In this document: one piece after another, positions 2,431-58,384 of the stretch
Layout of the letters: the number at the start of each line of letters is the position of its first letter
How positions within the stretch are numbered: the first letter of the stretch is position 1
Program-made: the position numbers and the translations under genes
Notes under the pieces: generated by a model
Database searches by the model: none
Seen by the model: only the letters and a program-made list of their open reading frames with translations
Told to the model about the DNA's origin: nothing
NCBI GenBank assembly: GCA_947038265.1
Contig: CAMQVP010000001.1
Location: 60,968 to 124,967, forward strand
Reading direction: 5' to 3'
Source: an uncultured Roseburia sp.
GTDB lineage: Bacteria; Bacillota; Clostridia; Lachnospirales; Lachnospiraceae
DNA: 64,000 bases

Positions 2431-2546
2431 TGTTAAAAACCCTTTCTTTTTTAATATAGTAGAAAACCGGTTAAATGGCAAAGACTTGAAATTTTCCTTT
2501 GAATAAAAAAAGAAACATAGATTTTTCTATGCTTCTTATCTTAGGA

Positions 2547-2630
2547 TGCCGGCGATGGGACTTGAACCCATACGACGTTGCCGCCAACAGATTTTGAGTC
2601 TGCCTCGTCTGCCAATTCCGACACGCCGGC
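2547..2630 (-). tRNA. tRNA-Leu, anticodon CAA
   Basis: The reverse complement reads GCCGGCGTGTCGGAATTGGCAGACGAGGCAGACTCAAAATCTGTTGGCGGCAACGTCGTATGGGTTCAAGTCCCATCGCCGGCA. It shows a 7-bp acceptor stem, the Leu-type D-loop GGAATTGGCAGAC, the anticodon loop CTCAAAA, a long variable arm and the T-arm GGGTTCAAGTCCC. CCA is not encoded. Confidence 0.85.
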
Positions 2631-2682
2631 TCTTTGTCCATTTTAACCGGACAAGTAGTATACTATCATATTTTTTTTAAAA

Positions 2683-3960: not shown

Positions 3961-4193
3961 TTTCTTTCTCCTTTTCGTTTGCGGTATCTTGGTTGATTTT
4001 AGCATATGAAAACAGGAAATTCAAGTAGCGATCACAGACACTGGCACGATCGTATAGGCAGACACACATTCATTTTTACGCCTGTCTGCATCTTAGTTTA
4101 TCTTTTTTAGATACTGCATGAAAGTGGTTTGCCGTTTTTTTGCTGAAGGACAATTTCACATCGGACAAGCTCATGCCAACTGTAATTTCTGGT

Positions 4194-4222
4194 TGATTTT
4201 CCTTTTCCCATACGCTATAATG
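4194..4222 (+). promoter_or_regulatory. sigma-A-type promoter for the TetR gene
   Basis: TTGATT, then 17 nt, then TATAAT (TTGATTttccttttcccatacgcTATAAT). It sits about 60 nt upstream of the ATG at 4283, and an AT-rich dyad (ttatataactaatttatattaa) lies just downstream. Confidence 0.5.
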
Positions 4223-4282
4223 CCATTGCATAAACATTTTATATAACTAATTTATATTAAATTTACAGAAAGGACTGTATAT

Positions 4283-4861
4283 ATGCCAAAACAGAGGATT
4301 ACAAAAGAAATGATTGTGGACGCCGCTTTTGAAATAGCAAAAACAGAAGGCATGGAACAGGTTTTAATTAAAAACATCGCAAAGAAAATTGGCTGTTCCG
4401 TCCAGCCGGTTTACACTTATTGCGCAAATATGGAAGGTCTTCGGAAAGAAGTGGAAAAGAAGGCTTGTGAAGTTATACGCGCATTTATCGAAAAGCATAT
4501 TGTAAAAGAAGACTTGTTCCACAGTACGGGACAGGCGTATGTCCGTCTTGCGAAAGAAAATCCGCATTTGTTCCGATTGTTTCTTTTACATAAAAGAGAG
4601 GGAATTTCTTCATTAGATGAGTTGCTCCAGTCTGAGACAAATCCGGCAGTTGCCGGATTTATCGCAGATACGTTTTCCATTTCTTTAGAACAGGCAAAAC
4701 AGCTTCATTTGAATTTACTTATTTACACGATTGGAATTGGGACAATTTTTGCTTCTTCCGAAATTTGCGCGGAGGAAATTTTTTCCCAGCAGGAATATGC
4801 TTTTAAGGCTTTTCTAAAAGCAAGCATGGATCAAAGAAAGGAGAATGGACATGAAACATAA
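4283..4861 (+). CDS. TetR/AcrR family transcriptional regulator
   Basis: N-terminal helix-turn-helix ...IVDAAFEIAKTEGMEQVLIKNIAKKIGCSVQPVYTYCANMEGL..., about 190 aa. Confidence 0.85.
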   Translation: MPKQRITKEMIVDAAFEIAKTEGMEQVLIKNIAKKIGCSVQPVYTYCANMEGLRKEVEKKACEVIRAFIEKHIVKEDLFHSTGQAYVRLAKENPHLFRLFLLHKREGISSLDELLQSETNPAVAGFIADTFSISLEQAKQLHLNLLIYTIGIGTIFASSEICAEEIFSQQEYAFKAFLKASMDQRKENGHET

Positions 4862-5402
4862 AATTTTGATTCTTTATAAAAGCGTTACGGGATTTACAAA
4901 AAAATACGCAGACTTTATCGCAAAAGAAACCGGAGGAACGGCGGTTGATTTTAAAAAAGCGGACCCAAAAACGCTGCATGGATATGACTGCATTATTTTT
5001 GGCAGCCGCGCGCATGCGGGAAGAATAGATGGATTGGGGAAACTTCGGAAACTTTTAGCGGGAAATTTCTCTGGCAGGCTGATTTTATTTGTGACTGGCG
5101 CTACGCCAAATTCTGAAGAAGATTCCATTTTAGAATTTTGGAAACAAAATCTGACGGCTGACGAGCAAAAACATCTTCCCCACTTTTATTTTCAGGGCGG
5201 ATTGTGTTATGAAAAAATGCCTCTGGCGGACAGGCTAATGATGAAAGCGGCGTCTCTTATGCTTCAAAAGAAAAAGAAGAAAAACGCTTCTGACCTTGCT
5301 TTCGAACAGGCAATCCAAAGCTCGTATGACATTTCTTCGGACATTTATGCGAAACCCCTAATCTCCTATCTTGTCCGTTCCGGTTTTTGTGATGCGAAGT
5401 AA
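4851..5402 (+). CDS. flavodoxin-like domain protein
   Basis: MKHKILILYKSVTGFTKKYADFIAKETGG...CIIFGS... is a flavodoxin-fold N-terminus. The ATG at 4851 is preceded by AAAGGAGAA and overlaps the end of the TetR gene, so the two are probably an operon. Confidence 0.6.
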   Translation: MKHKILILYKSVTGFTKKYADFIAKETGGTAVDFKKADPKTLHGYDCIIFGSRAHAGRIDGLGKLRKLLAGNFSGRLILFVTGATPNSEEDSILEFWKQNLTADEQKHLPHFYFQGGLCYEKMPLADRLMMKAASLMLQKKKKKNASDLAFEQAIQSSYDISSDIYAKPLISYLVRSGFCDAK

Positions 5403-5448
5403 AATACCAAAGAAAAACGCAGATGGCGTCGTCAAAAGACCATCTGCG
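5402..5448 (-). terminator. rho-independent terminator after azlD
   Basis: On the minus strand: CGCAGATGGtcttttgacgacgCCATCTGCG followed by TTTTTCTTTGG. The stem is 9 bp and overlaps the last azlD codons. Confidence 0.55.
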
Positions 5449-5764
5449 TCAAAACCATATACAATACTGTTCCCACTCCAATGCTTAACAGATTGTTTCT
5501 TTTCCAGATATGCAAAATGATTACTGTGGCTGTGGAAATCAATTCCGGCGCGGCGTGTGACGCAGACATTAGATTCATGTCTTTCAAACAATAAATCACT
5601 AACATCCCGATGACAGCCGGCGGAAGCGCGGCTCCTAAATACTTTACCAAAGGAGGGATTTCTTTCCCCTTTGGAAAAAGAAGAAACGGAATTGCCCGCG
5701 TTGCAAACGTCGTAACCGAAACAACTGCAATAATCAAAAGGGACCGCATTATGCTTACTGGCAT
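5432..5764 (-). CDS. azlD: AzlD branched-chain amino acid exporter small subunit
   Basis: 110 aa, four hydrophobic helices, begins MPVSIMRSLLIIAVVSVTTFATRAIPFLLF, and lies immediately downstream of azlC. Confidence 0.7.
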   Translation of the reverse strand: MPVSIMRSLLIIAVVSVTTFATRAIPFLLFPKGKEIPPLVKYLGAALPPAVIGMLVIYCLKDMNLMSASHAAPELISTATVIILHIWKRNNLLSIGVGTVLYMVLTQMVF

Positions 5765-5766
5765 TC

Positions 5767-6486
5767 CTATTCCCCCCTTTCACCCTTTTTTTCTATATGG
5801 CTCCTGCCAAAGACCAGACAGGCCATAATGCAAATCATAGACGGAAGGACAAAATTATCCCGCCCAAACGCCAAACGGAACAAAACCGTCGACAAAACCC
5901 CAATCACAGCCGGAATCCGTTTGCCGCCGGAAAGCCACTGCTCCACAAAAATCACAAGGAACAGAGCCGTCATTGCAAATTCAATGCCCTGCGCGTCAAA
6001 CGGAATCAGCGCCCCCGCCATTGCGCCAATCGCAGAGCCTAACACCCAATACCCCTGATCCAGCAACGCGACTGCAAACAAAAATTTATCCTCTGGAACG
6101 TCCTTTGGGATCTTAGCCGCGCAAAGAAGCGAATACGTTTCATCTGTCAGCGAAAAAATCATATAAAGCCTTTTTTTGCCCATGCGGCCAAACTTTTCCA
6201 AGAGGGAAAGGCCATAAAATATATGACGCACATTTACCATAAATGTCATAAAAATCATATCCCAGAAACCAACCTGCGGGGCAAAAAAATTTACGGCAAG
6301 ATACTGCCCGCTCCCAGCGTATACTACCATGCTCATAAAAACCGCCCACAAAAAATTATATCCTTTTTCCTGAAACATTACGCCAAACGCCGTTCCAATG
6401 AACAGATAGCCGGTAAACACCGGAATCGTATACGGAAATGCCGCGCGAAACGCTTTTGCATATCCGCCCGTCCTCTTTTGTTCCAT
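5767..6486 (-). CDS. azlC: AzlC family branched-chain amino acid permease
   Basis: 239-aa membrane protein containing ...GYLFIGTAFGVMFQEKGYNFLWAVFMSMVVYAGSGQYLAVNFF.... Confidence 0.8.
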   Translation of the reverse strand: MEQKRTGGYAKAFRAAFPYTIPVFTGYLFIGTAFGVMFQEKGYNFLWAVFMSMVVYAGSGQYLAVNFFAPQVGFWDMIFMTFMVNVRHIFYGLSLLEKFGRMGKKRLYMIFSLTDETYSLLCAAKIPKDVPEDKFLFAVALLDQGYWVLGSAIGAMAGALIPFDAQGIEFAMTALFLVIFVEQWLSGGKRIPAVIGVLSTVLFRLAFGRDNFVLPSMICIMACLVFGRSHIEKKGERGE

Positions 6487-6687
6487 TTCCTCCCCCTCTT
6501 TCCAGAAAATTCACATGGTAACTCTACACCATATAATAGGAAAATTCAATATTTTTTTTCAAGCGTTTTTTCTTTTCCATATACTGTAAAAATGCCACTG
6601 TCTGACAGGCAAATATGACTTCGTTTCTAAAAAAGAACCGGAAAGTTTCCTGAATCTAAAAAAAACGCTTCATTTTCGCAAAAAATA

Positions 6688-6696
6688 TGGTATACT
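6688..6696 (+). promoter_or_regulatory. extended -10 promoter element (TGGTATACT)
   Basis: TGnTATACT lies about 25-40 nt upstream of the candidate starts of the transglycosylase gene. The first ATG of the track ORF (6687) overlaps this element and so is unlikely to be the true start. Confidence 0.4.
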
Positions 6697-6734
6697 ATAA
6701 AAACACGATGACAGACGAAAGGATGTATGAAACT

Positions 6735-7541
6735 ATGCCAGCTATTTCAGCTTTAGAAGCATTAAACGCTGCGGTGTCCGCTTCCAATCAAATGCAGAGA
6801 AATTCCGCCAGCGAAGCAGATTTCTCCTCTTTTCTGAAAACAGAAAAAACCTTAGAAGACATCTACACGGAAGCGTCCCAGACCTATGGCGTATCCGTTG
6901 ACCTTTTAAAAGCAATGACAAGGCAGGAATCGAATTTTAACCCGAACGCCACCAGCAGAAGCGGCGCGCAGGGCCTTATGCAGCTAATGCCGGCGACCGC
7001 AGCAAGCCTTGGCGTGACAAACGCCTATGACCCTTACCAAAATATTATGGGCGGGGCGCAGTACATACGCAAAATGTTAGATAAATACAACGGAAACGTT
7101 TCCCTTGCATTAGCCGCCTATAATGCAGGCAGCAACAATGTGGACAAATACGGCGGCATCCCGCCTTTTGCGGAAACGCAAAACTATGTCGCGAAAATCA
7201 CGCAGTACCTTGCGGAAGGCGTGGACATACCGGATTCACAGACAGTCTATACGGCAGAAAGCAAGATAAAAGGCGACGCATCCGTTTCCTACCGGGATTT
7301 AAACAACTTAGCGGGAGAAATCCTGACGGAAATTTTTTCCTATGACGATTATATGAACTATCTTTCATCCCTGCTCGGACAAGACAAAACAGGCCTTGCC
7401 CTCTCCTTGTCCATCACTTCCTCATCTAACGAAAAAGATGAGGACAAAACCCAAGCCGAACCGGACAGTTATATCGCCTATGAAACCCTTTCAAACGGCG
7501 TAAAACCCGATTCTTTGACCGAAAAAACTGAACTAATCTAA
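6735..7541 (+). CDS. lytic transglycosylase (SLT domain) protein
   Basis: ...ESNFNPNATSRSGAQGLMQLMPATAASLG...AYNAGSNNVDKYGGIPPFAETQNYV... is the SLT catalytic motif. The start is ambiguous, at 6723 or 6735, and a GAAAGGA box lies at 6717-6723. Confidence 0.7.
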   Translation: MPAISALEALNAAVSASNQMQRNSASEADFSSFLKTEKTLEDIYTEASQTYGVSVDLLKAMTRQESNFNPNATSRSGAQGLMQLMPATAASLGVTNAYDPYQNIMGGAQYIRKMLDKYNGNVSLALAAYNAGSNNVDKYGGIPPFAETQNYVAKITQYLAEGVDIPDSQTVYTAESKIKGDASVSYRDLNNLAGEILTEIFSYDDYMNYLSSLLGQDKTGLALSLSITSSSNEKDEDKTQAEPDSYIAYETLSNGVKPDSLTEKTELI

Positions 7542-8651: not shown

Positions 8652-9347
8652 CTAAAAAACAGCTCCGTCTTCCTCCGCTAAAAATCCCGCCCCTTCTAAA
8701 ACTTTCCTCGTCTTTTTCAGATTTCTCTGCCCAAATACCTGAATATAACCGCCCTTCACACGCGTCTTCTTTCCAAACGCCTCCCGCATCTGCCCGCAGT
8801 CCACAAAAATCCGGTTCCCCTGCTCCTCTAAAATTCCGCCAATTTTAGCTTTCCGTTCCTCCCCGCTTTCATCTGTCACAGTCACTTCAAGCTCCTCAAA
8901 TTTCGCCCTCCATCTATCGGATTGGCTTTTTAACGGTGGATTCCCGTCCTTGTCCGCCAAAGAATCAAAAAACTCCTCTCCGACCAAAAGTATGAGTGTA
9001 TTCCCAAAACAAACCTCTTTCGAAAACGAGGAAAAACGAAACTCCTCTTTTTCCATCTCCACTCCCTCCAAAACTCCTTCCATCGAAAAAGAATCCAAAA
9101 CAACTGTAACCGTAACTGTCCAAACAGGCTCAAATGAACAAAGCCCCGGCAGTTTCTGAAACTCCTCCAAGATCTCCTCTGTCAAATCCCTCTCAGCAAA
9201 CACCCGCATTCCATATATTCTCTCCTCAATCCAATACGCTTCCAACTTCCCCCAAAAAAACCAGACAGCCAATCCGGCCACTCCAGCCCAGACAATGATC
9301 CGATACACATTCTTTTCCTTCATGCCAGCCGCCACTTTCCTTTCCAT
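8652..9347 (-). CDS. hypothetical membrane-anchored protein (one N-terminal transmembrane helix)
   Basis: 231 aa. It has no recognisable motif and is the last gene of the two-component/ABC operon. Confidence 0.45.
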   Translation of the reverse strand: MERKVAAGMKEKNVYRIIVWAGVAGLAVWFFWGKLEAYWIEERIYGMRVFAERDLTEEILEEFQKLPGLCSFEPVWTVTVTVVLDSFSMEGVLEGVEMEKEEFRFSSFSKEVCFGNTLILLVGEEFFDSLADKDGNPPLKSQSDRWRAKFEELEVTVTDESGEERKAKIGGILEEQGNRIFVDCGQMREAFGKKTRVKGGYIQVFGQRNLKKTRKVLEGAGFLAEEDGAVF

Positions 9348-9362
9348 TCTAATCTGTCATTC

Positions 9363-10808
9363 TCACTTCCTTCTCCCCCTTGCTATAAGCCATAAAATCA
9401 CCGCCAAGAGCCCCAAAATCACCAACACAAACACCGTCACCCACCATTGGTTTGTCTCCGGCGCTTCTTCCTGAACCTTCAGTTCCACAACTTCCGGTTT
9501 CTGAACCGCCGTTATGATCTCCTGCCGCTGCTCCGTCACTTCTCCCTGCTCATTTTCAAACGTAAACACTGCCACGCCCAAAGTTTCCCCATACTTTTCC
9601 CCATGCTCTCCTGACTGATCCCCAGACTGTTCCGGCTCATCTTGTATGCCTTCCTCCATATCAAGCGTCCCCACAAAAACCGGAATTTCCCCCTCTTTCG
9701 CCTCGCCCGCTTCCAAATTCCCCAAAAAAATCTCCTTTGCCGCGAACAGCCCCCTGCCTTCAAAACGCACTTTCGCATTATAAATCACGGCAAGCCCTAC
9801 GTTTGTCGCCTGAAACGAGAATGGCTCCGTATCCCCTTCATAAACGCTTTTTGGAAATGATATATTCGTAAGCTCCGCTTTTTGCTTTCTGGCAATCCGA
9901 AGCGTGACCGTTTCCGTCATCTGGCAATTTTCCCCGCCTTCATCTTCATAGTCAAACAAAAACTGCGCGACGGCAGTCTCTTTGGCCGTCTTTGCCCCGA
10001 CCGAAATATTCTGGGACAAATCCATTACTCCGCCTGCCTTCACCTGCGAAAAGTACCATGAAGTATTTGTAAACACAAGATCCGCGTCCTCTGAAATCAA
10101 GGTCACTTTCAAATTCCATATCCCTTGGCTTTCACTGCAATTCTTTGCCATAAGCCGCCAAGCCGCAGATTCGCCCGCCATAAGAAACTCCCCATTTAAA
10201 CTATTCCCTTCTATCCTCACTTTCGGTTTCTGCCTTTTTTTCTCTGTCTCCGCTTCTTTGTCCAAAGAATCCGTTTCCATTTCCCATTGTTCCTCTTTCT
10301 TTAAATCCACTCCTTCCTCCGGCGGCGTGAAATCCCTGCCGTCTGTAATTTCCACATAAACCGTAAACTCCTGTTCCACCGTTTCCCCTGCTGTCTGCGC
10401 AGAAACGATAAGCCGCAGAGGATACTGCCCATTCACCCTGTCTTTTTTTAATTTCACCTTACAGCGGTACAAATAAATGCCCCGTTTTCCACGTTTTACC
10501 TTTTTCCAATAATTTTTAAAGTGAAATGGGCTGTTTTCCTCACGTTCAAACGAAATTTTCACTGACAGGCAATCTTCTTTCAATGGAAGATCCGTTTGAA
10601 ACGGCACGACAAGATCCATCTCCCCTTTTCTTACAGAAGGCGTATATCCTTTTGCAAACGACGCATTCATTCCCTGATACCTCCGGTTTGCGTCAATCGA
10701 AATGACCTCGCCTGCAGACACACGGAGCCTTCCCGCCATTAACCCACAGCAGAAACAAAACAGCGCAAACAAAATGTAAGCGCCGCCCTTTTTTTCTTTC
10801 GCCCTCAT
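9363..10808 (-). CDS. hypothetical cell-surface protein with a signal peptide and a C-terminal transmembrane anchor, possibly CARDB/DUF11-like
   Basis: The N-terminus is YILFALFCFCCGLMAGRLRVSA, the C-terminus is WWVTVFVLVILGLLAVILWLIARGRRK, and the body is beta-rich and acidic. Confidence 0.45.
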   Translation of the reverse strand: MRAKEKKGGAYILFALFCFCCGLMAGRLRVSAGEVISIDANRRYQGMNASFAKGYTPSVRKGEMDLVVPFQTDLPLKEDCLSVKISFEREENSPFHFKNYWKKVKRGKRGIYLYRCKVKLKKDRVNGQYPLRLIVSAQTAGETVEQEFTVYVEITDGRDFTPPEEGVDLKKEEQWEMETDSLDKEAETEKKRQKPKVRIEGNSLNGEFLMAGESAAWRLMAKNCSESQGIWNLKVTLISEDADLVFTNTSWYFSQVKAGGVMDLSQNISVGAKTAKETAVAQFLFDYEDEGGENCQMTETVTLRIARKQKAELTNISFPKSVYEGDTEPFSFQATNVGLAVIYNAKVRFEGRGLFAAKEIFLGNLEAGEAKEGEIPVFVGTLDMEEGIQDEPEQSGDQSGEHGEKYGETLGVAVFTFENEQGEVTEQRQEIITAVQKPEVVELKVQEEAPETNQWWVTVFVLVILGLLAVILWLIARGRRK

Positions 10809-11443
10809 ACCGCCAAAAGCCTCCCTCCGTCCATCTCATACACCCTGTCACATAAAATCCGGATATCCTCACTGTTATGGCTCGCTAACAGAATCGTTTT
10901 TCCCTGCTCCTTTAAGCCTGACAAAATTTTCCTAATGTCCGAAACGCCATGCTTATCCAGACCGTTAAACGGCTCGTCTAAAACCAATAAATCCGGATTT
11001 TCCATAATCGCCTGCGCAATGCCCAGCCGCTGTCGCATACCAAGGGAATACTTTGAAACCGCCTTTTTCAAATTTGGATTTAACCCCGCCCGTTCCATAG
11101 CCGCGCAGATTTCCGTTTTAGAAATTTTCCCCCGCAAACCTGCAAGGATTTCCAAATTTTTTCTTCCAGAAAGGTTTGTCAAAAACCCCGGCGTTTCAAT
11201 AATTACGCCAATACTTTCCGGAAAGTCAATTTCCGCCCCGATTTGTTTTCCCGCCACAAAAACTTTTCCTTCCGTCACTGGCAAAAACCCACAGATACAC
11301 TTCATCAACACCGTTTTCCCTGAACCGTTATTGCCGCAAATCCCATATGCCTTTCCCTGTTCCATATCCAGACAGACGTCATAAAGCGCAGTATCTTTTC
11401 CAAATTTTTTCGACACATGATCCACTTCAATATAAGACTTCAT
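10805..11443 (-). CDS. ABC transporter ATP-binding protein, short LanF/MutF-like (ABC-2 type)
   Basis: Walker A GNNGSGKT, signature YSLGMRQRL, Walker B LLVLDEP. At 212 aa it is typical of lantibiotic-protection ATPases. Confidence 0.85.
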   Translation of the reverse strand: MKSYIEVDHVSKKFGKDTALYDVCLDMEQGKAYGICGNNGSGKTVLMKCICGFLPVTEGKVFVAGKQIGAEIDFPESIGVIIETPGFLTNLSGRKNLEILAGLRGKISKTEICAAMERAGLNPNLKKAVSKYSLGMRQRLGIAQAIMENPDLLVLDEPFNGLDKHGVSDIRKILSGLKEQGKTILLASHNSEDIRILCDRVYEMDGGRLLAV

Positions 11444-12159
11444 ACAATCTCCTTTAACCTAAGATCCAGCAAAAATCCATGCAGGATAAGAGCCAATGCC
11501 GTAAACGCCAGCAAAAAAAGCCAAATCCCATTTCCGCTTTCGCCCCAATTTTCTTCACACAAAATCCACTCTGCCGGATACATCGCGTACATATCCGGCA
11601 AATAGCGGTCTTTTAAAATCACCAAAAAATAAAAGCAGACAAACGGAAGCCCATACGCCATATAATAATTCAAAAAAATGGCCGCAAAAAATCCTGAAAG
11701 TTCCGCTAACATCCCCCCGATCAGGCAAATGCGCATCAATAGCAAAAAAGCTTCCAAGATCTCCTCCCCTTTTATTTCGCCCACAATCTCCAATGGAAAA
11801 AAAAACAGAAAACAAATCAGAAATGCCAAAAGACCGGCAAGAAAAAAAGGGAATGCCCCGCTGACATAAACCTGAAACAGTTTCCGCTTAAGATATTCCA
11901 TACGGTTCATGCGGACGCAATACAGCTTCAAAAAACCGCTCTTGCTTTCCTGCAAAAAAACCGCTCCCGCCGGAAGCGACGCCGCCACTGGCAGAAAAAA
12001 CACCATAATTTGAGACTGTAATGCGGCGCGGTAAAACTTCAAGAAACTTCCTGCTGCAAGCGGAGGCTCTATTTGCCCATAAGGCATTCCCAAAAGCAGC
12101 GCGAGGACGCAGATGAAAGCCGATATCCAGATCCCTCTTTTAAGCATCAATTCTTTCAT
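11440..12159 (-). CDS. ABC-2 type permease
   Basis: 239 aa, six hydrophobic helices, translationally coupled to the ATPase gene by a 4-nt overlap. Confidence 0.6.
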   Translation of the reverse strand: MKELMLKRGIWISAFICVLALLLGMPYGQIEPPLAAGSFLKFYRAALQSQIMVFFLPVAASLPAGAVFLQESKSGFLKLYCVRMNRMEYLKRKLFQVYVSGAFPFFLAGLLAFLICFLFFFPLEIVGEIKGEEILEAFLLLMRICLIGGMLAELSGFFAAIFLNYYMAYGLPFVCFYFLVILKDRYLPDMYAMYPAEWILCEENWGESGNGIWLFLLAFTALALILHGFLLDLRLKEIV

Positions 12160-13046
12160 CCCATATCACCCGTAAATGAAGTAAAATTATATTTTTTTAA
12201 CGCAAAAAACGAAGCGGCCGCTAACAGCGCCAAAATACAAATAAACAGACTACACGACTGCCCAATCGAAGGCAAAAAATCATATCCAAAATCATGCATC
12301 CCGTACGTCGCATGGTTTAAAGGACTAATCCAGCCTGTAATCCTTCTTATCCGGTACATCTCATATTCTTCTTTGTGAAGGAACGCCGCAAGCGTTTCAG
12401 GTTTCAGCAAAAAACCAAACAGGCTGTAACAAAGCCCTGCCGCAATCCCGGCCCGCCGTCCTGCCGCCAACTGGACAAACAGCATCAAAAAACAAAGTGT
12501 CAATGCGTAAAAAAACAAAAGCAGAAGCATTTGGAAACAAACTTCCAAAGGCGCCGCGCTCTCCATCACTTTTACAGTCGATGGAACGGACATTTTCTTC
12601 CCCAGATCCGAATATGCAAGCAGCGCCGCCGTTTTGCTCCAGATATTCCCGATATATGTTTTTTTCATACATAAAATTCCGGTCACGGCAAACACATATC
12701 CCAGATAAATCATAACCCCCAGACACAAATAAAAAAACTGACCCAAAAGCCATTTTCCCTTCGTCATGCGTAATAGCGCATATGGCGTAAACGGACTAAG
12801 TTTCGGCATATCCATAAACATGAAAATCAATAGCAGTGAAGCAAGCAACACCGACGTCGCATCCCCAAACGTCCAGAGAACCGGCTCCGCCGCCTGCATG
12901 GGCGAATCAAAATATTCTGCCACATACATTGCCCTGTCACTTAGAAAAAAGCATAAAATAAAAGCAAACAAAAAAGCGAGTATCATTCTGGGGTTTTTGA
13001 AAAACCCCAGAAAATTCCAACGCGCCGCAATAACCGCCTGCCGCAT
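12156..13046 (-). CDS. ABC-2 type permease (second membrane subunit)
   Basis: 296 aa, polytopic, overlapping its neighbours. Confidence 0.55.
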   Translation of the reverse strand: MRQAVIAARWNFLGFFKNPRMILAFLFAFILCFFLSDRAMYVAEYFDSPMQAAEPVLWTFGDATSVLLASLLLIFMFMDMPKLSPFTPYALLRMTKGKWLLGQFFYLCLGVMIYLGYVFAVTGILCMKKTYIGNIWSKTAALLAYSDLGKKMSVPSTVKVMESAAPLEVCFQMLLLLFFYALTLCFLMLFVQLAAGRRAGIAAGLCYSLFGFLLKPETLAAFLHKEEYEMYRIRRITGWISPLNHATYGMHDFGYDFLPSIGQSCSLFICILALLAAASFFALKKYNFTSFTGDMG

Positions 13047-13048
13047 TC

Positions 13049-14533
13049 TTAATACCCCAATCCACGGTCAATCACTGTGCCGTCAATCGCATTAATCGTC
13101 AAAAAACTCTGTGACGAACGCTCCCCGCTGTTTCTCTCAGAAACTTCTCCATCTAAAGCTACATATTCAAACCCTCCAAAAAAATCCCAGACCGGAACCA
13201 TAAGTCCCGTATCATTGTCTGCCGCAGGGTCATAAATCCTTGAATAACCAAACTTAATCGTCCGGATATGGAACGTCCTCTGCGCCTCATAATTGACAAT
13301 ATCCGCATTTGACACTTCCATCATCTGTTCATAGATGTTTATAATACTGTTAAAATCCAAAAGCTGTACATTCTCCGTGACTACCCCGCCCATCTGATAA
13401 GGGCTCATCAATTCCATAGATTCAATCCCGTCGTCTCCCACAATTATATTACAGATCTCATAACTCCAAGGCTCTAACGTACTATCCATATCAGGAAGCC
13501 CGCCGCCCATCGAAATCGTATACGTCACCGGCACACCGTCCAATTCTCTGGCAAAGCAAAACAAATACCCTGCATCCAACATTCCTTCTTTAGACGCCCC
13601 TGTCTCTCCTTGGTAAAATACGCTGTAATCCCAATCCGCCAGAGAAAGCCCAAGTCCCAGCTTATCCACTTTTTCCTGCGCAGTTTTTTTCGCTTCTTCA
13701 AAAGAAATGCCGATCTTGTCTTTTATCATTTCCTCTGGTATATAATTTTCAGATTCTTCGTCCTCCGAAAGAAATTTTCCCTCAGTCCAATTTGTAGATC
13801 CCATCGGATCTGGCAAGTCATCTCTTATTTTTGTAATCCTAAAAGAAAGATCCGGCTTTAACGCATTCGTAAACACATAATGATAATTTCCATGTTCTGT
13901 TTCCACCACGCCTTCAAAATGACTCTCGTCAATCTCCTTGCCTTTTTCAGTCTCATACTCTAAATTTAAAGCAGGCTTCACTTCCACCTTTTTGGGCTTA
14001 TCAGGAGCCGTCTTTAATTGCTCTTGATAGTTTTCAATCACCTTATCAATATCAAACTGCAGGTTTCCGTTTTCATCAGTCCCATACATGTATGGATCTA
14101 AATTGCCTTGCGCCTTATACTTTTTCAGAAGCGTAATCTTCTCTTGCAAATCCTCTTTTGTCTGGATAGAATACAGATACCCCATGTAAATTTTATCTCC
14201 TTCAAAAAAAGCATTTGTCACCGTGTCAATTAAATCCTGATCCAGCTCCATTGCCGATACCGCATATGTATTCACCTCATTTGCATCCGGCACAATCACA
14301 TTTGCATCTGTATCAATTACAAGCTTGCCGTCTTCATAGGTTTTGAGATTTTTATAGTTCTTTGGCGCCGCAAGACGTTCCCGAAGCGAATTTTTTGATT
14401 CTTCCCCGCTTTTATAATTTTTCACATTACCCGCATTCTTCTCCCTGACAATCGTTTCTTCAGGCGTTTTTTCACAGCCTGCAAGCAAAAAAATAGAAAT
14501 GCAAAAACATGCCGCTAATACTTTTCTTTTCAT
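13049..14533 (-). CDS. lipoprotein, 494 aa, function unknown
   Basis: Lipobox ...LLAGCEKTPE. It is hydrophilic and acidic and sits between the histidine kinase and the permeases. Confidence 0.55.
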   Translation of the reverse strand: MKRKVLAACFCISIFLLAGCEKTPEETIVREKNAGNVKNYKSGEESKNSLRERLAAPKNYKNLKTYEDGKLVIDTDANVIVPDANEVNTYAVSAMELDQDLIDTVTNAFFEGDKIYMGYLYSIQTKEDLQEKITLLKKYKAQGNLDPYMYGTDENGNLQFDIDKVIENYQEQLKTAPDKPKKVEVKPALNLEYETEKGKEIDESHFEGVVETEHGNYHYVFTNALKPDLSFRITKIRDDLPDPMGSTNWTEGKFLSEDEESENYIPEEMIKDKIGISFEEAKKTAQEKVDKLGLGLSLADWDYSVFYQGETGASKEGMLDAGYLFCFARELDGVPVTYTISMGGGLPDMDSTLEPWSYEICNIIVGDDGIESMELMSPYQMGGVVTENVQLLDFNSIINIYEQMMEVSNADIVNYEAQRTFHIRTIKFGYSRIYDPAADNDTGLMVPVWDFFGGFEYVALDGEVSERNSGERSSQSFLTINAIDGTVIDRGLGY

Positions 14534-14668
14534 AATGTCCTCCTTTTGGTTTTATAGTTCCATTTTAACAAAGCGCTTTTTTCAAATATTCATGTAACTG
14601 TAAACATTATGTAAAGAACTGGCTGTTTGACTGCATTCGCCTAGAAAACCCTCTGTAACCCCCATCTA

Positions 14669-15931
14669 TCAAACATCTTCTATCTCAACCCATACTTTTG
14701 TCCCAGCCTTTACTTTGCTTTCCATCTTCATTTGTCCGCCATGCGCCGCCGCAATCTGATCGCATAACGCAAGCCCCAGACCCATATTCCCGCTTTTGCG
14801 TGACCGCGACTGATCCACCCGGTAAAACGCTTTTTTTACCTTTTCTAATTCATCAGGCGCTATCCCGCATCCTGTGTCCCTTACCCACAGGGACTTTGCA
14901 TCCGCCCCCAGAAAAATGCGGCTGCCCGTCTCTGAAGCCATTTTGGCATTATTGATCAAATTAATCAGAAAACTTGTCATTAAATCGGCGTCCATTCGCT
15001 TCTTTTTTCCAAAAAACTCTCCTTCCCGCTCCAAAACAATCTCTTTTTCTTTTAAACTATGGCGAACGCTGTTTGCCACCGCCAAAAACAGATCCTCCAC
15101 CAAAACATCTTCCATTACAATTTTACAATCCGGATCATATAATTCCGTCAATTCCATCATTTTTTCCGACAGCCTTGAAAGCCTTGCGCTCTCCTTGTGA
15201 ATGTAATGGAGCGCCTTATCTTCCTGTTCTTTCGACAATTTTACTGCAAGCAGCGTCTCCGAATACCCCTGTATCGCCGTAAGCGGCGTTTTTAACTCAT
15301 GCGACATACTGCCAATTAGCTGGCGCTGTGTTTCATTTACCGCCTGTAAAGGCTTCGTGATTTTTTTTATCCGGTAAACCAAAAGCGCCGCCATGCCAAC
15401 CGACGCCAGTAACGAAAAAAACGCTTCCTTTATAACAAGCGAAAAACTTTCCAAATAAACGGACGTAATATCCTGTACATAAAAAAAAGAGTATTTTTGC
15501 GTTTGGGCTGAAATCTCCAACATATCCTTTTCCAAATAAAAAACGAGAAGATACCTCCCGTTTATCTGTTCTAACTTTGACCGGCAGGGATATTCCCATT
15601 TCTGCCACCCGGCATCCGGAATTTCAAATACATAACGGCTCCCGTTATACAATTCTTTCCCATCTTTATAAAAAGCCACGTCTTCCGGCATATACTCCCG
15701 GAAAAAATATGTCATCACATATTCCTGTGACTTATCTTCTGAATGGGATTTCTGTATTTCCTCCATACAGCGCCCCGCCGCATCGACAAAATACCTGCCC
15801 TCTTTTTCTTGCAAAAGCTCAATTTTTTCCTGATGGCTGGCAAAAATCACATAACCCGAAATAAACTGCGCCAATAGAAACAACATCATCGCCGCAGTCC
15901 ACGCAATCTTATGTATCATTGTCATTATCAA
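14669..15931 (-). CDS. sensor histidine kinase (HisKA + HATPase_c)
   Basis: Two N-terminal transmembrane segments, the H-box MSHELKTPLTAIQGYSETLL, the N/G boxes ...NLINNAKMASE...DTGCGIAP..., and ...GLGLALCDQIAAAHGG.... Confidence 0.85.
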   Translation of the reverse strand: MIMTMIHKIAWTAAMMLFLLAQFISGYVIFASHQEKIELLQEKEGRYFVDAAGRCMEEIQKSHSEDKSQEYVMTYFFREYMPEDVAFYKDGKELYNGSRYVFEIPDAGWQKWEYPCRSKLEQINGRYLLVFYLEKDMLEISAQTQKYSFFYVQDITSVYLESFSLVIKEAFFSLLASVGMAALLVYRIKKITKPLQAVNETQRQLIGSMSHELKTPLTAIQGYSETLLAVKLSKEQEDKALHYIHKESARLSRLSEKMMELTELYDPDCKIVMEDVLVEDLFLAVANSVRHSLKEKEIVLEREGEFFGKKKRMDADLMTSFLINLINNAKMASETGSRIFLGADAKSLWVRDTGCGIAPDELEKVKKAFYRVDQSRSRKSGNMGLGLALCDQIAAAHGGQMKMESKVKAGTKVWVEIEDV

Positions 15932-16587
15932 ACCTCCATTCGATACCCCACGCGCGGAGCCGTAATAATCACATCAAAAAAATCCAGCTTCTTGCGGATA
16001 TTTGCCACATGCACGTCCACAGTCCGGCTCTCTCCATCGAAATCCACGCCCCAAAGCATATTTAAAATCTGATCTCTCGTCAAAACCCTGCCACGGCGCT
16101 TCCAAAACGCCATCAGGCAGTCAAATTCCATTGGCTGCATCGAAACTTCCTTGCCGCCCTTTGTGACAATCCGTTTTTTCTCGTAGATTACCACGTCTTT
16201 AATATGGATTTCCTCGTCCTCCTTTCCCCCATGCCGTTTTAACACGTTCTCCATACGCGCCAAAAGTTCCAGCATCTCAAACGGTTTTACAAGATAATCC
16301 TCTGCGCCGCTTTTTAACCCCTTCACCTTACTGGACAAATCTCCTTTTGCCGTAAGGTAAATTACAGGGATCTCATGCGACTTTAATTCTTTTAAAAGCG
16401 CAAACCCATCTTTTCCGGGCAGCATAATATCCAAAAGAGCAAGGTCATACTTTGAATCCCGCTCTAAATGACGGCTGACCTTTATCCCGTCAAAAAACGG
16501 AACCGGACAATACCCCGCAATTTCCAAGTTCATACAAATTAAATCATTAATCGCCGCCTCATCTTCAATGACCAGTATTTTTTTCAT
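15928..16587 (-). CDS. OmpR-family response regulator
   Basis: MKKILVIEDEAAINDLICMNLEIAGY...LDIMLPGKDG... followed by a C-terminal winged helix ...RVLTRDQILNMLWG.... It overlaps the kinase gene by 4 nt. Confidence 0.9.
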   Translation of the reverse strand: MKKILVIEDEAAINDLICMNLEIAGYCPVPFFDGIKVSRHLERDSKYDLALLDIMLPGKDGFALLKELKSHEIPVIYLTAKGDLSSKVKGLKSGAEDYLVKPFEMLELLARMENVLKRHGGKEDEEIHIKDVVIYEKKRIVTKGGKEVSMQPMEFDCLMAFWKRRGRVLTRDQILNMLWGVDFDGESRTVDVHVANIRKKLDFFDVIITAPRVGYRMEV

Positions 16588-16692
16588 AGAAATCCCTATC
16601 CTTTATTTTCATTGTCAATCCAGTTTCATTATAATCAATCTTTTCGCCAAACACTACACACTTTTGTAAAGAAATTGTAAATCTTCGCCCCT

Positions 16693-16768: not shown

Positions 16769-17131
16769 ATGAACTATAAATTATGTGACGGAGAATACCA
16801 TCTAATGGAAATTGTATGGGAACTAGAGCCCATTAGCTCTACCGAACTGCACAAAGTATGCCTGCCGCGCCTTGGCTGGAAAAAATCCACGACTTATACC
16901 ATGCTCCGCAAACTTTGCGGACGGGGCCTGCTTTTAAATCAAGATTCCATCGTTACTTCTTCCGTCAAAAAAGAAGAAATTGAACGTTATGACAGCAGAG
17001 AAGTGGTTGAAACACGCTTTAACTGCTCCCTGCCAAAATTTGTAGCCGCTTTCCTAGGAGAGCGGAAACTAAGCCAAAAAGATGCAGACGAACTTCAAAA
17101 GCTAATTGACACTTACCGGAAAAAAGAATAA
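16769..17131 (+). CDS. BlaI/MecI/CopY family transcriptional repressor
   Basis: 120 aa, winged helix ...EYHLMEIVWELEPISSTELHKVC...KKSTTYTMLRKLCGRGLL.... Confidence 0.85.
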   Translation: MNYKLCDGEYHLMEIVWELEPISSTELHKVCLPRLGWKKSTTYTMLRKLCGRGLLLNQDSIVTSSVKKEEIERYDSREVVETRFNCSLPKFVAAFLGERKLSQKDADELQKLIDTYRKKE

Positions 17132-17145
17132 GGAGGCGCATTTTT

Positions 17146-18882
17146 ATGACAAACATAATTATGACTTTAACCAGATTAAGTTTTCTCACTTCTATTATGG
17201 CGCTTATTGTCTTAGGCATACGGTTCTGCTTAAGAAAAGCCCCAAAAACATACACCTATATTTTATGGATATTTGTATTTATCCGCGCAATCATGCCGGC
17301 GTCCTACACGTCTGACTACAGCCTGTGGAACCTAATGCAATCTTTCTTTTCCACACATCAGACAACAGCGCCTGCCACCAATGCAGAAACGCTTAAAGCC
17401 ATTTCAAAACCCTTTGCTTTTCCAAGAGACGCGGCAGCGGCTGTTTCACAAACCAAAGAAGCGGCCTTCACAACGCAAAACCTGTTCAACCCATGGATCA
17501 TAATAGCGGCGGTCTGGGCGCTTGGAATGTCCGTTATGCTGATTTACAGCCTGTATTCCATGCGAAAACTCCGTAAAACAGTAGAATTTTCCACTCTGTC
17601 CAAAACAGCCCATGCATCTGCAAACTGCCGCATTTACGAATCCGGACAGATCAAAACCGCATTTATTTTAGGATTTTTCTCTCCCGTCATCTACCTACCA
17701 AAAGGTCTCGGTTCGTCAAAAAAACAAATGATACTGGAACATGAATCTGTGCATATCCGCCGCCATGACCACCAGATCAAAATGGCCGCATGGATTATTT
17801 TATCCCTGCACTGGTTCAATCCCCTTATGTGGGTCAGCTTTTATTTTTTAAACAAAGATATGGAATTATCCTGCGACGAACAAGTGCTTATCAACCTTGG
17901 TTCCCAAATACGGGCTGACTACAGTTCCCTCCTGTTAGACCTTGCAATGCCAAACCGCATTTCCTCTGGGATGCCGCTTGCGTTCAGCGAAGGGAACACG
18001 AAAATCCGCATCAAAAATATACTGGCTTACCGGCCTGTGAAATTCGGCGCTTCCACAGCCGCAATCCTTTTAATCTGCATTACAATATATGGCTGCATGG
18101 GAAATCCAAAAAACGAGACAAGCGTCCCAGAAACCGAACAAACCAAACAAACTGAGCTGCAAAACGAAGGAACAGAACTTCCTGCCACACCGGAAGACGA
18201 AGAAAAACTTGCCTTCCTAAATACGTTTTTAGATAACTTAGCAAACTGCCGCGCCGAAGAAATTTACGCTGTTCTTTCACCGGAATTAAAAACGGAAGCC
18301 GACACATTTATGAACAACTCATTTAACATCACTCTAAACGAGCCAAAAAAACACAGGCGGATCAACCCATTCACCCCGACAGAAACGCCTGTAATTGAAA
18401 AAACAGATTCCGGATACCATTACAAATTCAAACGGCCAGATAATTATCCGCTCCCAGAATACGATAAATTTCATTCATCTGACGTTTGGGAAGGATTTCT
18501 GACGCTAGAGGAGACGGACAGCGGAATACAGGTTACAGAATGGCAAGACGGAAGTTATAATGAAATTGCCTCGCGCGAAGAATTTGACTGGCAGTTTCAA
18601 TACTATTCTTTTGAAAAAGAAGCAGAAACAGAACTAAACTGGCTGAATGAACACCCAGACGAAGTTGCTAATCTATACTATTACAACCGCGCAAACGAAG
18701 AACCGGAAAAAATCTTAACAGAGCGTTTCCATTTGAAAAATGGGACTGTAACAGACATCAACAAAGATAAAGAAAAAGAAATGCTTATCACATATAGCTG
18801 GGATGATGGCTCTGTGATATTCCGTATGGAACAGCTTTATAATGACATCTGGTATGTAACGGGAGCAGATACGGGGAAATAA
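17146..18882 (+). CDS. BlaR1-like M56 family membrane metalloprotease / signal transducer with a non-PBP C-terminal domain
   Basis: Four transmembrane segments and the zinc motif HESVHIRRHDH with a downstream ...ELSCDE.... The C-terminal region of about 270 aa is acidic and Y/W-rich and lacks the SxxK/KTG motifs of a penicillin-binding domain. Confidence 0.8.
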   Translation: MTNIIMTLTRLSFLTSIMALIVLGIRFCLRKAPKTYTYILWIFVFIRAIMPASYTSDYSLWNLMQSFFSTHQTTAPATNAETLKAISKPFAFPRDAAAAVSQTKEAAFTTQNLFNPWIIIAAVWALGMSVMLIYSLYSMRKLRKTVEFSTLSKTAHASANCRIYESGQIKTAFILGFFSPVIYLPKGLGSSKKQMILEHESVHIRRHDHQIKMAAWIILSLHWFNPLMWVSFYFLNKDMELSCDEQVLINLGSQIRADYSSLLLDLAMPNRISSGMPLAFSEGNTKIRIKNILAYRPVKFGASTAAILLICITIYGCMGNPKNETSVPETEQTKQTELQNEGTELPATPEDEEKLAFLNTFLDNLANCRAEEIYAVLSPELKTEADTFMNNSFNITLNEPKKHRRINPFTPTETPVIEKTDSGYHYKFKRPDNYPLPEYDKFHSSDVWEGFLTLEETDSGIQVTEWQDGSYNEIASREEFDWQFQYYSFEKEAETELNWLNEHPDEVANLYYYNRANEEPEKILTERFHLKNGTVTDINKDKEKEMLITYSWDDGSVIFRMEQLYNDIWYVTGADTGK

Positions 18883-20418: not shown

Positions 20419-22242
20419 ATGGCTATCGGTTATCTAATCCTACAAGCCCGTACCGCGCACGATGCCGTCCCATTAAGCGGCGTCAGGATTAAAATCTTAG
20501 ATCCCCTCGGAAACAATGTCTATGAATTATCAACAGATGAAAACGGAGAAACGCAGAAAATCCCCCTTGAAACTTTAAGCAGAGATTTTTCCCTAAACCC
20601 CTATTTTACAGAACTTCCCTATATCAGTTACAATGTCCGCACCCTCGCGGACGGCTTCCATTCCCTTTTTGTATCGGATATTCCCATCTATGAAGGCGAA
20701 ACCGCTATCCTGCCGCTTACGCTGATTCCCATGGAAACGAACAGACGCAATGCGCTGCAAACGGAAATCTCTGTCGGAAAACCTGCAGTCGCAATGGATA
20801 AACCCCGCCATCAGGAAGGAATGCCACAGGGAAATTATGTGCTCAGGCAAGTCGTAATCCCAAATCCAATTACTGTGCATCTTGGCTCGCCTTCTTCGTC
20901 CGCTTCTAATGTGCGGGTTTCGTTTCCAGACTATATTAAGAACGTTGCAAGCAGTGAAATCTACCCAACATGGCCGGAAGCTTCTCTAAGAGCTAATATT
21001 TACGCCATTATCACGTTTGCCTTAAACCGCGTTTATACGGAATGGTACAGAAGCCGCGGCTATAATTTTGATATTACAAATAATACCGCCTACGACCAGT
21101 ATTTTGTCTATGGAAGGCCGATTTATGATTCCATCAGCAGGATTGTAGATGAAATTTTTAATGAATATGTCCGCAGGAAAGGTCAGAACAACCCATATTT
21201 TACCTCGTTTTGTAATGGAACGACTGCCACTTGCCAAGGGCTTTCGCAGTGGGGTACGGTTTCTTTGGCGGAACAGGGCATGACCCCGATTGGCATTCTC
21301 CGTTCTTATTATCCAAAGGATATTGAAATCGCGCAAACGGATATTATCACGGGTATGCTTTCTTCTTATCCGGAAACGCCGTTAAAGCTTGGAAGCCGCG
21401 GCTTGAATGTGCAGACGATCCAGACTTACTTAAACAGGATACGGAAAAATTATCCGGCTATCCCGAAGATTACTGATGAGACAGGTGTGTTTGGGAAAAG
21501 CACGCAGGACGCAGTGAAAAAATTCCAGTCTGTGTTTCACTTGGCTTCTGATGGGATTGTTGGAAAAAGCACATGGTATAAGATTTCAAGCCTTTATACT
21601 GCCGTTACCAGACTTGCGGAATTAAATGGAGAAGGGGAAACGCTTGGGATCGGGACTGTGCCGCCGGATTCTTTGCTCCGTCAGGGAAGCAGGGGTCAGG
21701 ACGTAATTATTTTACAGTATTTGCTAAATGTGATTTCTGAATATTATGTCGGAGTTCCAGCTCCTGCGCAGGACGGCATCTTTGGAAGCCAGACCGCTCA
21801 GGCTGTTTCGGCTTTTCAAAGGATTATGCGTTTAAATCCGGACGGCATTGTAGGGCCTTTGACTTGGAACGCGCTTTATGAGGCTTATCGGGGAATCGAG
21901 CAGAATATTCCGTCTTTTGGACCGGATCAAGGGACGATTGAATATATCGTTCAGGCAGGTGACACGCTTTGGGCGATTGCCAGAAAATACGGCACGACGG
22001 TTGATGTGTTGAAAAGTTTAAATGGATTAGACAGCGATTTACTGAGGATTGGACAGAAGCTGAAAGTGCCTGTTTCCCAGAGCGCCCCCTCCTATACCGA
22101 ATATACGGTGCAGTCGGGAGATACGCTTTGGTCGCTTGCAAAAAGATACCATACCACGGTAGATGCGATTAAGCAGTTAAATAATCTGTCAAGTGACTTA
22201 CTTAGGATTGGACAGATTTTAAAAATACCTGAAAACAGGTAA
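20419..22242 (+). CDS. SpoIID/LytB-domain cell-wall protein with 2 peptidoglycan-binding (PG_binding_1) and 2 LysM domains
   Basis: SpoIID-type motifs ...EASLRANIYAIITFALNRVY..., ...FDITNNTAYDQYFVYG... and ...CQGLSQWGTVSLAEQGMTPIGILRSYYP.... Two ...GSRG.NV..IQ.YLN...DGIVG..TW... modules and two C-terminal LysM repeats (YIVQAGDTLWAIARKYG... and YTVQSGDTLWSLAKRYH...). GGAG lies 9 nt upstream. Confidence 0.75.
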   Translation: MAIGYLILQARTAHDAVPLSGVRIKILDPLGNNVYELSTDENGETQKIPLETLSRDFSLNPYFTELPYISYNVRTLADGFHSLFVSDIPIYEGETAILPLTLIPMETNRRNALQTEISVGKPAVAMDKPRHQEGMPQGNYVLRQVVIPNPITVHLGSPSSSASNVRVSFPDYIKNVASSEIYPTWPEASLRANIYAIITFALNRVYTEWYRSRGYNFDITNNTAYDQYFVYGRPIYDSISRIVDEIFNEYVRRKGQNNPYFTSFCNGTTATCQGLSQWGTVSLAEQGMTPIGILRSYYPKDIEIAQTDIITGMLSSYPETPLKLGSRGLNVQTIQTYLNRIRKNYPAIPKITDETGVFGKSTQDAVKKFQSVFHLASDGIVGKSTWYKISSLYTAVTRLAELNGEGETLGIGTVPPDSLLRQGSRGQDVIILQYLLNVISEYYVGVPAPAQDGIFGSQTAQAVSAFQRIMRLNPDGIVGPLTWNALYEAYRGIEQNIPSFGPDQGTIEYIVQAGDTLWAIARKYGTTVDVLKSLNGLDSDLLRIGQKLKVPVSQSAPSYTEYTVQSGDTLWSLAKRYHTTVDAIKQLNNLSSDLLRIGQILKIPENR

Positions 22243-36094: not shown

Positions 36095-36358
36095 AACAAA
36101 TAAGACCTCCTTCTGAAAATTGTTCACAAAATGTACAGTTATTCTCATTATAGAATCTTTCCTGCCATTTTACAACCACTTTTTTACATTATTTTTTCAA
36201 AAAAATATAAGCCAAACAGACAGAAAGCAGTCAGCGGATCACATCGAAAATGCAAACAAGCTGAAATCAATTTCATATAGTTTGCACAAAATTCTTATGC
36301 CAAATTTATCAAAAACGCCTATTTACAATCTAAAGAATACCATATATCCTATAAAAAT

Positions 36359-58158: not shown

Positions 58159-58384
58159 CGTTTCGTTCCTCTCCTTTTGTAAATCAACACGACATACGAT
58201 TATATATTATTTTAATGACATTTTTTCAATAACGCTTATAACAGCATATTTCCATTCATAATTAAATACACATTATCCACTAATTATAAACCACATAAAG
58301 TGATACTCTAATCATCTTTTCGTGGTACACAGTCTATAGCGTATTAATTTATTATTTTCAATGTTTTTTCAAAATCTTAATCAA

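Follow-up and report, generated by a model that had tools for sequence, protein, structure and literature searches.

A conserved gut Lachnospiraceae gene cluster as a candidate two-component/ABC module for cell-envelope stress

Several described bacterial systems resemble parts of the locus analyzed here. Lantibiotic immunity of the LanFEG/LanI and LanRK kind (for example, NisFEG-NisI-NisRK) combines an ATP-binding cassette (ABC) ATPase, two proteins with six transmembrane (TM) helices, a lipoprotein and an OmpR-type pair of response regulator and histidine kinase. In Bacillus and Staphylococcus, the kinase WalK is accompanied by the TM-anchored proteins YycH and YycI (WalH/WalI), and lipid II-binding antibiotics induce YtrBCDEF of Bacillus subtilis, a system that changes the thickness of the wall (PMC8060467). 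Here, we describe an eight-gene cluster in a 64,000-nucleotide (nt) stretch of DNA from an uncultured Roseburia sp. (contig CAMQVP010000001.1, positions 60,968 to 124,967; hereafter, the window), in which genes for an OmpR-type regulator and its kinase are followed by a six-gene effector block encoding a DUF6034 lipoprotein, two membrane proteins (P1 and P2), an ABC ATPase and two surface proteins (S481 and M231). We propose that the cluster is a two-promoter regulon that would sense and resist cell-envelope damage, a proposal whose chances we judge to be about even. Among known systems it would work most like a two-component/ABC antimicrobial detoxification module, and we infer that it represents a variant of the two-component/ABC envelope-stress modules that is widespread and apparently unstudied.

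Conserved gene order and two candidate promoter boxes

S481 has 126 homologues, none of which is annotated. It was used to fetch 79 loci from genomes and metagenomes, in which blastp then served to look for each of the eight window proteins. In about 55 of them, from Lachnospiraceae, the genes stand in the order of the window and on the same strand (type A: regulator, kinase, DUF6034 in one or two copies, P1, P2, ATPase, S481, M231), an arrangement that is kept despite differing neighbours, for example beside topoisomerase and recA genes at one locus (L003). This order is conserved far beyond chance, and all eight genes are under purifying selection, with ratios of nonsynonymous to synonymous substitution rates (dN/dS) of ~0.0–0.19 in the pairs tested. 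The ATPase is 60–79% identical across all loci and the regulator 60–85% among type A orthologues, while P1 is the most conserved membrane component (40–73% in the aligned set). Co-conservation of the accessory genes with the kinase, regulator and ABC genes, on which a preliminary description of this DNA had staked its reading, is thus borne out by the context survey.

A fuller version of the cluster (type B) occurs in Christensenellaceae, Oscillospiraceae, Coprococcus catus and other Bacillota, with the order (regulators), DUF6034, P2, P1, ATPase, ATPase2, S481, permease. Its ATPase2 is of the LolD/FtsE/MacB type, and its terminal gene encodes a 4-TM protein of 370–420 amino acids (aa) in which Pfam recognizes an FtsX domain and, weakly, MacB_PCD. 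Within several type B clusters there are also genes for a VanW/PG_binding_4 protein and for a VanY-B/G-like carboxypeptidase with a membrane anchor. At one locus (L063), the place of the two-component pair is taken by a BlaI-like gene and an 852-aa BlaR1 M56 protease (L063:3319-5877) whose C-terminal outer domain is DUF6034 (Pfam, 8.3e-36); at another (L061), an 831-aa BlaR1-like open reading frame (ORF; L061:1379-3874) follows a BlaI gene and matches DUF6034 by blastp. Three further loci (L070, L072 and L080) have no nearby regulator gene, yet DUF6034 stands with P1, P2 and the ATPase. In L081, genes for a regulator, a short kinase of 331 aa, a MacB-type ATPase and a double-FtsX permease of 933 aa precede that for an S481 homologue, an arrangement that resembles a Bce module; the layout of L082, judged from ORF sizes and blastp only, is like it.

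The motif TTTACA-N5-TTTACA occurs exactly in only two copies in the window, before the regulator gene and before the lipoprotein gene (Table 1). A TATAAT lies 31 nt downstream of the box at the regulator gene (16633-16628), and a TAAAAT 31 nt downstream of the box at the lipoprotein gene (14567-14562), where a GGAGG ribosome-binding site precedes the ATG. With at most one mismatch allowed, 34 of 45 related loci carry the box upstream of the regulator gene, and 48 of 65 regions upstream of DUF6034 genes in related loci contain it, against a background of 18 in 6978 sequence windows. This distribution points to a phylogenetic footprint of an OmpR-type binding site, at which binding of the regulator would be expected. 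We take the box to be akin to the PhoP-type TT(A/T/C)ACA repeats of B. subtilis.

By its Pfam matches, all above the cut-offs, the regulator-kinase pair is a standard OmpR-family two-component system (regulator: Response_reg, 2.8e-21, and Trans_reg_C, 1e-20; kinase: HisKA, 3.3e-14, and HATPase_c, 2e-18). The best NCBIfam matches, PhoB, MtrA and YycF for the regulator and PnpS, WalK and PhoR for the kinase, each fall below the cut-off; both proteins are generic members of the OmpR/PhoR/WalK branch. A hydropathy scan placed two TM helices in the kinase, at ~13-31 and ~165-188, with an extracellular loop of ~135 aa between them; no HAMP domain was detected in it.

Regulatory genes are not uniformly present among the relatives. 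Four loci (L018, L020, L032 and L040) keep the box and have no adjacent regulator and kinase genes. Two others (L028 and L036) have the upstream box and no sizeable ORFs at the expected place of these genes (~2000-6000, upstream of DUF6034); masking or degradation of the sequence could account for this, as could two-component genes located elsewhere.

The ORF list of the window agrees with the eight-gene, minus-strand cluster outlined in the preliminary description, and the tight packing it reported, broken by one gap, is likewise as found: genes overlap by 4 nt at the regulator/kinase, P1/P2, P2/ATPase and ATPase/S481 junctions, and are separated by 2 nt (lipoprotein-P1), 15 nt (S481-M231) and 135 nt (kinase-lipoprotein) at the others. 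The window matches a contig of a Lachnospiraceae-type metagenome-assembled genome (GCA_949385135.1), which encodes the same DUF6034 protein (P0187); in the public annotation of that identical contig the kinase has 418 aa from an ATG at 15925, versus 420 aa from the TTG. PolA, CoaE and amylase genes elsewhere in the window indicate its chromosomal character.

Table 1. Positions of the cluster genes, candidate boxes and adjacent BlaI/BlaR1 pair in the window
Feature	Coordinates	Strand	Description and basis
Candidate regulator-binding box TTTACAATTTCTTTACA	16665..16681	-	Upstream of the regulator gene
Regulator	15928-16587	-	OmpR-family response regulator, 219 aa; Pfam Response_reg and Trans_reg_C
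Kinase	14669-15931	-	Sensor histidine kinase, 420 aa from TTG; Pfam HisKA and HATPase_c
Second candidate box TTTACATAATGTTTACA	14599..14615	-	In the 135-nt gap between kinase and lipoprotein genes
DUF6034 lipoprotein	13049-14533	-	494 aa, lipobox LLAGC; Pfam DUF6034 (PF19499)
P1	12156-13046	-	Membrane protein, ~6 TM helices, 296 aa, orphan family
P2	11440-12159	-	Membrane protein, ~6 TM helices, 239 aa
ABC ATPase	10805-11443	-	212 aa; Pfam ABC_tran, 4.1e-28
S481	9363-10808	-	Signal peptide, three Ig-like domains and C-terminal TM anchor, 481 aa
M231	8652-9347	-	Predicted FtsX/MacB-type permease reduced to TM1 and extracytoplasmic domain, 231 aa
BlaI	16769-17131		Divergent from the cluster
BlaR1-M56	17146-18882		Divergent from the cluster

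Components of the effector block and the surrounding genes

We then characterized the lipoprotein, which matches Pfam DUF6034 with 397.5 bits (cut-off 27) over residues 1-494 and begins with a lipoprotein signal whose lipobox cysteine, Cys20, is nearly invariant. Its AlphaFold2 model is confident (mean predicted local distance difference test score, pLDDT, of 89.3; predicted template modelling score, pTM, of 0.87), and the only entries below 1e-3 in an independent Foldseek search are 5coz and a WalK-YycH model. The protein is accordingly modelled with a YycH/YycI-like and PepSY-like fold, that is, the extracytoplasmic fold of YycH and YycI, and it carries a conserved C-terminal motif, INAIDGTVIDR, which we presume to correspond to the PepSY signature. 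The relationship was seen at the level of structure: the Pfam YycH and YycI models did not match the lipoprotein, its only hits at E ≤ 0.1 being DUF6034 and two chance-level matches, and the DUF6034 profile gave two chance-level matches to PDB sequences (E 0.11 and 1.8). Searches of the literature for EUBREC_2869 or 5COZ returned nothing relevant. We propose that the DUF6034 lipoprotein may serve as an extracytoplasmic ligand-binding co-sensor.

Genes for DUF6034 proteins also occur in tandem, with one to three per locus (L072:14-5181, L080:3620-6600, L014, L046 and others), and in Lachnospiraceae-type loci such copies are typically 45–60% identical to the window protein.

The best NCBIfam match of the 212-aa ATPase is TIGR03740 (galliderm_ABC; 176.3 bits, cut-off 309.75), followed by DrrA, GldA and PmtC; all four are ABC-2-type exporter ATPases, and all score below their cut-offs. 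P1 and P2, with about six TM helices each, had no significant matches in Pfam, in NCBIfam or among PDB sequences, and the use of family profiles and distant members did not change this. For P1, no link to a Pfam family emerged when 5.8 billion proteins were searched, when 1.84 billion representatives were searched with a profile or when distant members were scanned with Pfam; its own family comprises 1075 clusters at 50% identity. Two of 28 P2 homologues touch ABC2_membrane_4 (E 0.057), and one has a weak precomputed DUF2705 match. P1 and P2 are presumed to be the subunits of an ABC transporter powered by the 212-aa ATPase.

Two metagenomic proteins of 582-593 aa (P0361 and P0362) fuse an N-terminal P2 to a C-terminal P1, in the gene order of type B, and the existence of these fusions supports a P1/P2 heterodimer. 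Paralogy of P1 and P2 was considered and rejected, as they have no detectable homology to each other (hhalign, 0.2%).

S481 was modelled by AlphaFold2 (pLDDT 82.8) with Ig-like beta-sandwich domains at ~36-154, 197-306 and 311-436. It has a conserved TNQWW motif, its Foldseek matches are generic Ig-like proteins only, and the S481 profile, like those of P1 and P2, gave no matches to PDB sequences; one homologue carries Pfam CARDB. In relatives, the S481 gene either separates an FtsX permease gene from that of a MacB-type ATPase or immediately follows a double-FtsX permease gene. M231 could be aligned to this permease family by hhalign: 62 M231 homologues against 11 full-length neighbouring permeases of type B gave a probability of 98.6% (E 5.7e-16), with residues 8-229 on 8-243. 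In the full-length forms, which have 4 TM helices, Pfam detects an FtsX domain. The chain of M231 stops at residue 231 and includes a single TM helix, and the alignment indicates that M231 is TM1 together with the outer domain of a permease of the MacB/FtsX type, with TM2-4 absent. No second ATPase is encoded in the window cluster; FtsX TM2-4 and the second ATPase are found in relatives outside the Lachnospiraceae. With a dN/dS of 0.11–0.27 (23 pairs), M231 is not a decaying remnant, and S481 and M231 diverge at matching rates.

A comparison of two loci, L039 and L055, adds an observation on this pair. Their kinases and ATPases are 100% and their P1 proteins 99% identical, but S481 is 87% and M231 89% identical, a pattern suggesting that the surface-exposed S481/M231 pair has recombined or has diversified faster.

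A BlaI/BlaR1 pair adjacent to and divergent from the cluster had also been reported in the preliminary description. The pair is real, but it adjoins the cluster only in the closest relatives among the fetched loci (L001, L002 and L004), and a role as conserved partner of the Lachnospiraceae-type module was rejected on this ground. In the BlaR1 protein of the window, the M56 domain (residues 7-292) is followed by ~285 residues without a Pfam match; kinship of this C-terminal domain with DUF6034 was rejected (hhalign, 1.5%).

Elsewhere in the window, peptidoglycan-related genes flank the cluster, namely those for a 607-aa LysM/PG_binding_1/SpoIID protein (20419-22242) and an SLT lytic transglycosylase (6687-7541), and the close relative L001 has the SLT and AsnA neighbours as well. 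Another ABC pair occupies 52253-54888 on the minus strand, where a 253-aa ORF stands directly upstream of a 625-aa FtsX-domain permease; with only the permease scanned, this pair could be BceAB-like. A 3130-aa surface protein (26756-36148) with eight Listeria-Bacteroides repeats and F5/8 type C, mucin-binding, GH101_N, FIVAR and Big_2 domains is probably a mucin-glycan adhesin or enzyme. The stretch at 55183-61975 encodes a type I restriction-modification system (HsdR-like, 991 aa; HsdM, 729 aa) at a G+C content of 0.30–0.37, versus ~0.44 elsewhere, and is likely an acquired island. Finally, a 924-aa ORF (41730-44504) joins an N-terminal dephospho-CoA kinase (CoaE) domain to an FtsA/PilM/MreB-like actin-fold region and is either an unusual fusion or a mis-joined ORF.

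Proposed mechanism and alternative explanations

In the mechanism that we propose, the phosphorylated regulator would bind both boxes, amplifying its own expression and switching on the effector block. DUF6034 would be the ligand-binding element on the cell surface, signalling to the outer loop of the kinase, and in its fused form it would talk to the M56 protease instead. A sensor role is suggested because, in other Clostridia, DUF6034 fused to the BlaR1 protease replaces the kinase pair. DUF6034 may also pass ligand to the transporter, as it stays with P1, P2 and the ATPase where there is no regulator gene nearby. P1, P2 and the 212-aa ATPase would form a heterodimeric exporter of the ABC-2 kind that clears the offending compound or protects the cell from it. 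The S481/M231 pair may be the remains of a second, MacB/FtsX-type machine, of which relatives keep the dedicated ATPase and the complete permease; in Lachnospiraceae, this machine would have lost its motor and probably persists as a passive surface complex. The likely trigger would be an antimicrobial with the cell wall or lipid II as its target, since the clusters of relatives include VanY, VanW, BlaR1 and Bce-like genes and since the parts list also parallels that of YtrBCDEF. Overall, the cluster probably senses and resists cell-wall-targeting antimicrobials. More tentatively, and with the doubts outweighing the support, we suggest that DUF6034 is a hitherto unrecognized, portable YycH-like extracellular sensor domain, which Clostridia would have joined to two unrelated signalling devices, as the lipoprotein partner of a histidine kinase and as the sensor domain of a BlaR1-type protease, in both cases controlling a transporter built from two orphan families, with S481/M231 as the motor-less MacB/FtsX descendant in the form of a passive surface complex.

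A number of points weigh against this proposal. It is inferred from genes and sequences, and the evidence for the boxes is a sequence motif. Convincing intrinsic terminators were found neither after M231 (z-score -0.5) nor after the kinase gene. The exporter label of P1/P2 derives from context, topology and ATPase type, and no transporter family was matched. The window cluster has no VanY or VanW gene, so that the link to the cell wall comes from distant relatives only, in which S481 is 26–30% identical. As for DUF6034, no paper mentioning it was present in the library searched; its grouping with the effectors, and not with the kinase, is as compatible with immunity or feedback as with sensing; and it is lipid-anchored, whereas YycH and YycI act through TM helices, for which reason their mechanism is not simply transferable to it.

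Against this background we weighed three other explanations. The preliminary description had placed the cluster near lantibiotic immunity, in which the ATPase and permeases would expel a peptide, the lipoprotein sequester it and the regulator and kinase sense it. The composition of short ATPase, two separate 6-TM proteins, lipoprotein and two-component pair fits such a system, the two P2 homologues with weak ABC2_membrane_4 contacts also speak for it, and TIGR03740 is indeed the best NCBIfam match of the ATPase, which is the part of the LanFEG/MutFEG assignment that survives; a score of 176 bits against a cut-off of 309.75 is the part that does not. MutE/MutG-type permeases are not supported, given that P1 and P2 gave no NCBIfam match at E ≤ 0.1 in the TIGR-series library, which should include the MutE/MutG models TIGR03732 and TIGR03733, and no significant Pfam ABC-2 match. 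The kinase and regulator are generic members of the OmpR/PhoR/WalK branch; the lipoprotein, said to sit in a LanI position, was considered for a LanI (NisI/SpaI) fold, which was rejected in favour of that of the YycH/YycI accessory proteins. No lantibiotic biosynthesis gene was found among the eight larger ORFs scanned elsewhere in the 64-kb window, and the FtsX-derived S481/M231 part has no counterpart in LanFEG. A lantibiotic system is thus improbable, and our conclusion is that the cluster is not a true member of this class. What holds of the broader earlier idea, a sensing and resistance module with novel accessories, is an operon-like, co-conserved combination of sensing and ABC genes with three extracytoplasmic proteins; these can now be read as a DUF6034 protein whose fold is YycH-like, a protein built from three Ig-like domains and an FtsX-type outer domain in truncated form.

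Housekeeping control of the cell wall, in the manner of WalRK-WalHI plus FtsEX, would assign the same parts differently, with the kinase and its YycH-like partner monitoring peptidoglycan, S481/M231 positioning or regulating a wall hydrolase and the ABC part exporting or flipping a wall component. The YycH/YycI fold of a lipoprotein whose gene directly follows the kinase gene agrees with this, as do the best scores of the kinase and regulator against PhoR/WalK/PnpS and PhoB/YycF models, the SLT and LysM/SpoIID genes on the flanks and the control of hydrolases by FtsX-type outer domains in FtsEX (PMC8060467). The system is patchy, however, rather than universal, with up to three DUF6034 copies per locus and regulators that vary or are absent; relatives carry the resistance-type genes VanY, VanW and BlaI/BlaR1; no hydrolase gene is conserved within the cluster; and the flanking SLT gene is common only to close relatives. 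We consider homeostasis unlikely. An ABC importer, with the 494-aa lipoprotein as substrate-binding protein, P1 and P2 as permeases and a single ATPase, would have the classical composition of Gram-positive importers. This reading was rejected as very improbable: the short ATPase matches exporter ATPases best, P1 and P2 match neither BPD_transp_1 nor another importer permease model, the model of the lipoprotein does not show a two-lobed binding-protein fold, and DUF6034 is also fused to the BlaR1 signalling protease.

The module is found widely among Clostridia, gut Lachnospiraceae included, and five of its eight proteins lack functional annotation. If the proposed sensing and resistance regulon is correct, it would provide a function for a Pfam domain of unknown function, extend the idea of YycH/YycI accessory sensors beyond WalK and link it to BlaR1-type signalling, and offer a case of an FtsX-type permease that survives the loss of its motor. 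The module may also explain how common commensals tolerate cell-wall-active antimicrobials or host peptides, and several cultured carriers, among them Blautia producta DSM 2950, Petralouisia muris, Eubacterium sp. 14-2, Lachnospiraceae bacterium 3-1 and Coprococcus catus, make direct testing possible.

Comparison with described systems

The likeness to LanFEG/LanI and LanRK lies in the parts list, that is, the short ATPase, two separate 6-TM proteins, lipoprotein and OmpR-type pair, and in TIGR03740 as the best-scoring model of the ATPase. The cluster departs from it in an ATPase well below the TIGR03740 cut-off, in permeases that match neither lantibiotic model, in a lipoprotein of different fold and about twice the size of LanI, and in two extra surface proteins of apparent MacB/FtsX origin, with no lantibiotic genes seen nearby.

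With WalK-YycH/YycI, the cluster shares the placement of the accessory gene, the DUF6034 gene likewise coming immediately after that of a WalK/PhoR-branch kinase. YycH and YycI have an N-terminal TM helix, in contrast to DUF6034, which is a lipoprotein and has no match to their Pfam models. In addition, DUF6034 has its own promoter box, is grouped with the transporter, is present in one to three copies and occurs in BlaR1 M56 fusions.

The parallel with YtrBCDEF is one of composition only: the fuller relatives of the cluster share with it an ATPase, two membrane proteins, a second ATPase and a MacB-like/FtsX protein. Ytr is controlled by the GntR-type repressor YtrA, as opposed to a two-component system, and has neither DUF6034 nor the Ig-like S481, whereas the window cluster lacks the second ATPase and the FtsX TM domain.

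To the type VII, mechanotransmission transporters MacB, FtsEX and BceAB, the cluster is connected through M231, which is homologous to their TM1 and outer domain, through the LolD/FtsE-type ATPase of its relatives and through S481, which accompanies a short kinase and a double-FtsX permease in L081, with a matching layout in L082; the motor itself, ATPase plus TM2-4, is absent from the window. Membership in BceRS-BceAB was not supported, as BceS is an intramembrane-sensing kinase, in contrast to the kinase of the cluster with its ~135-aa outer loop, and there is no 10-TM BceB.

Finally, the BlaI/BlaR1 (MecI/MecR1) systems meet the module in L063 and, by blastp, in L061, which have a BlaI-like gene and a BlaR1 M56 protein with a DUF6034 outer domain. 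The window cluster uses a two-component system instead; the C-terminal domain of the BlaR1 protein beside it is unrelated to DUF6034, and the pair is not co-conserved with the cluster.

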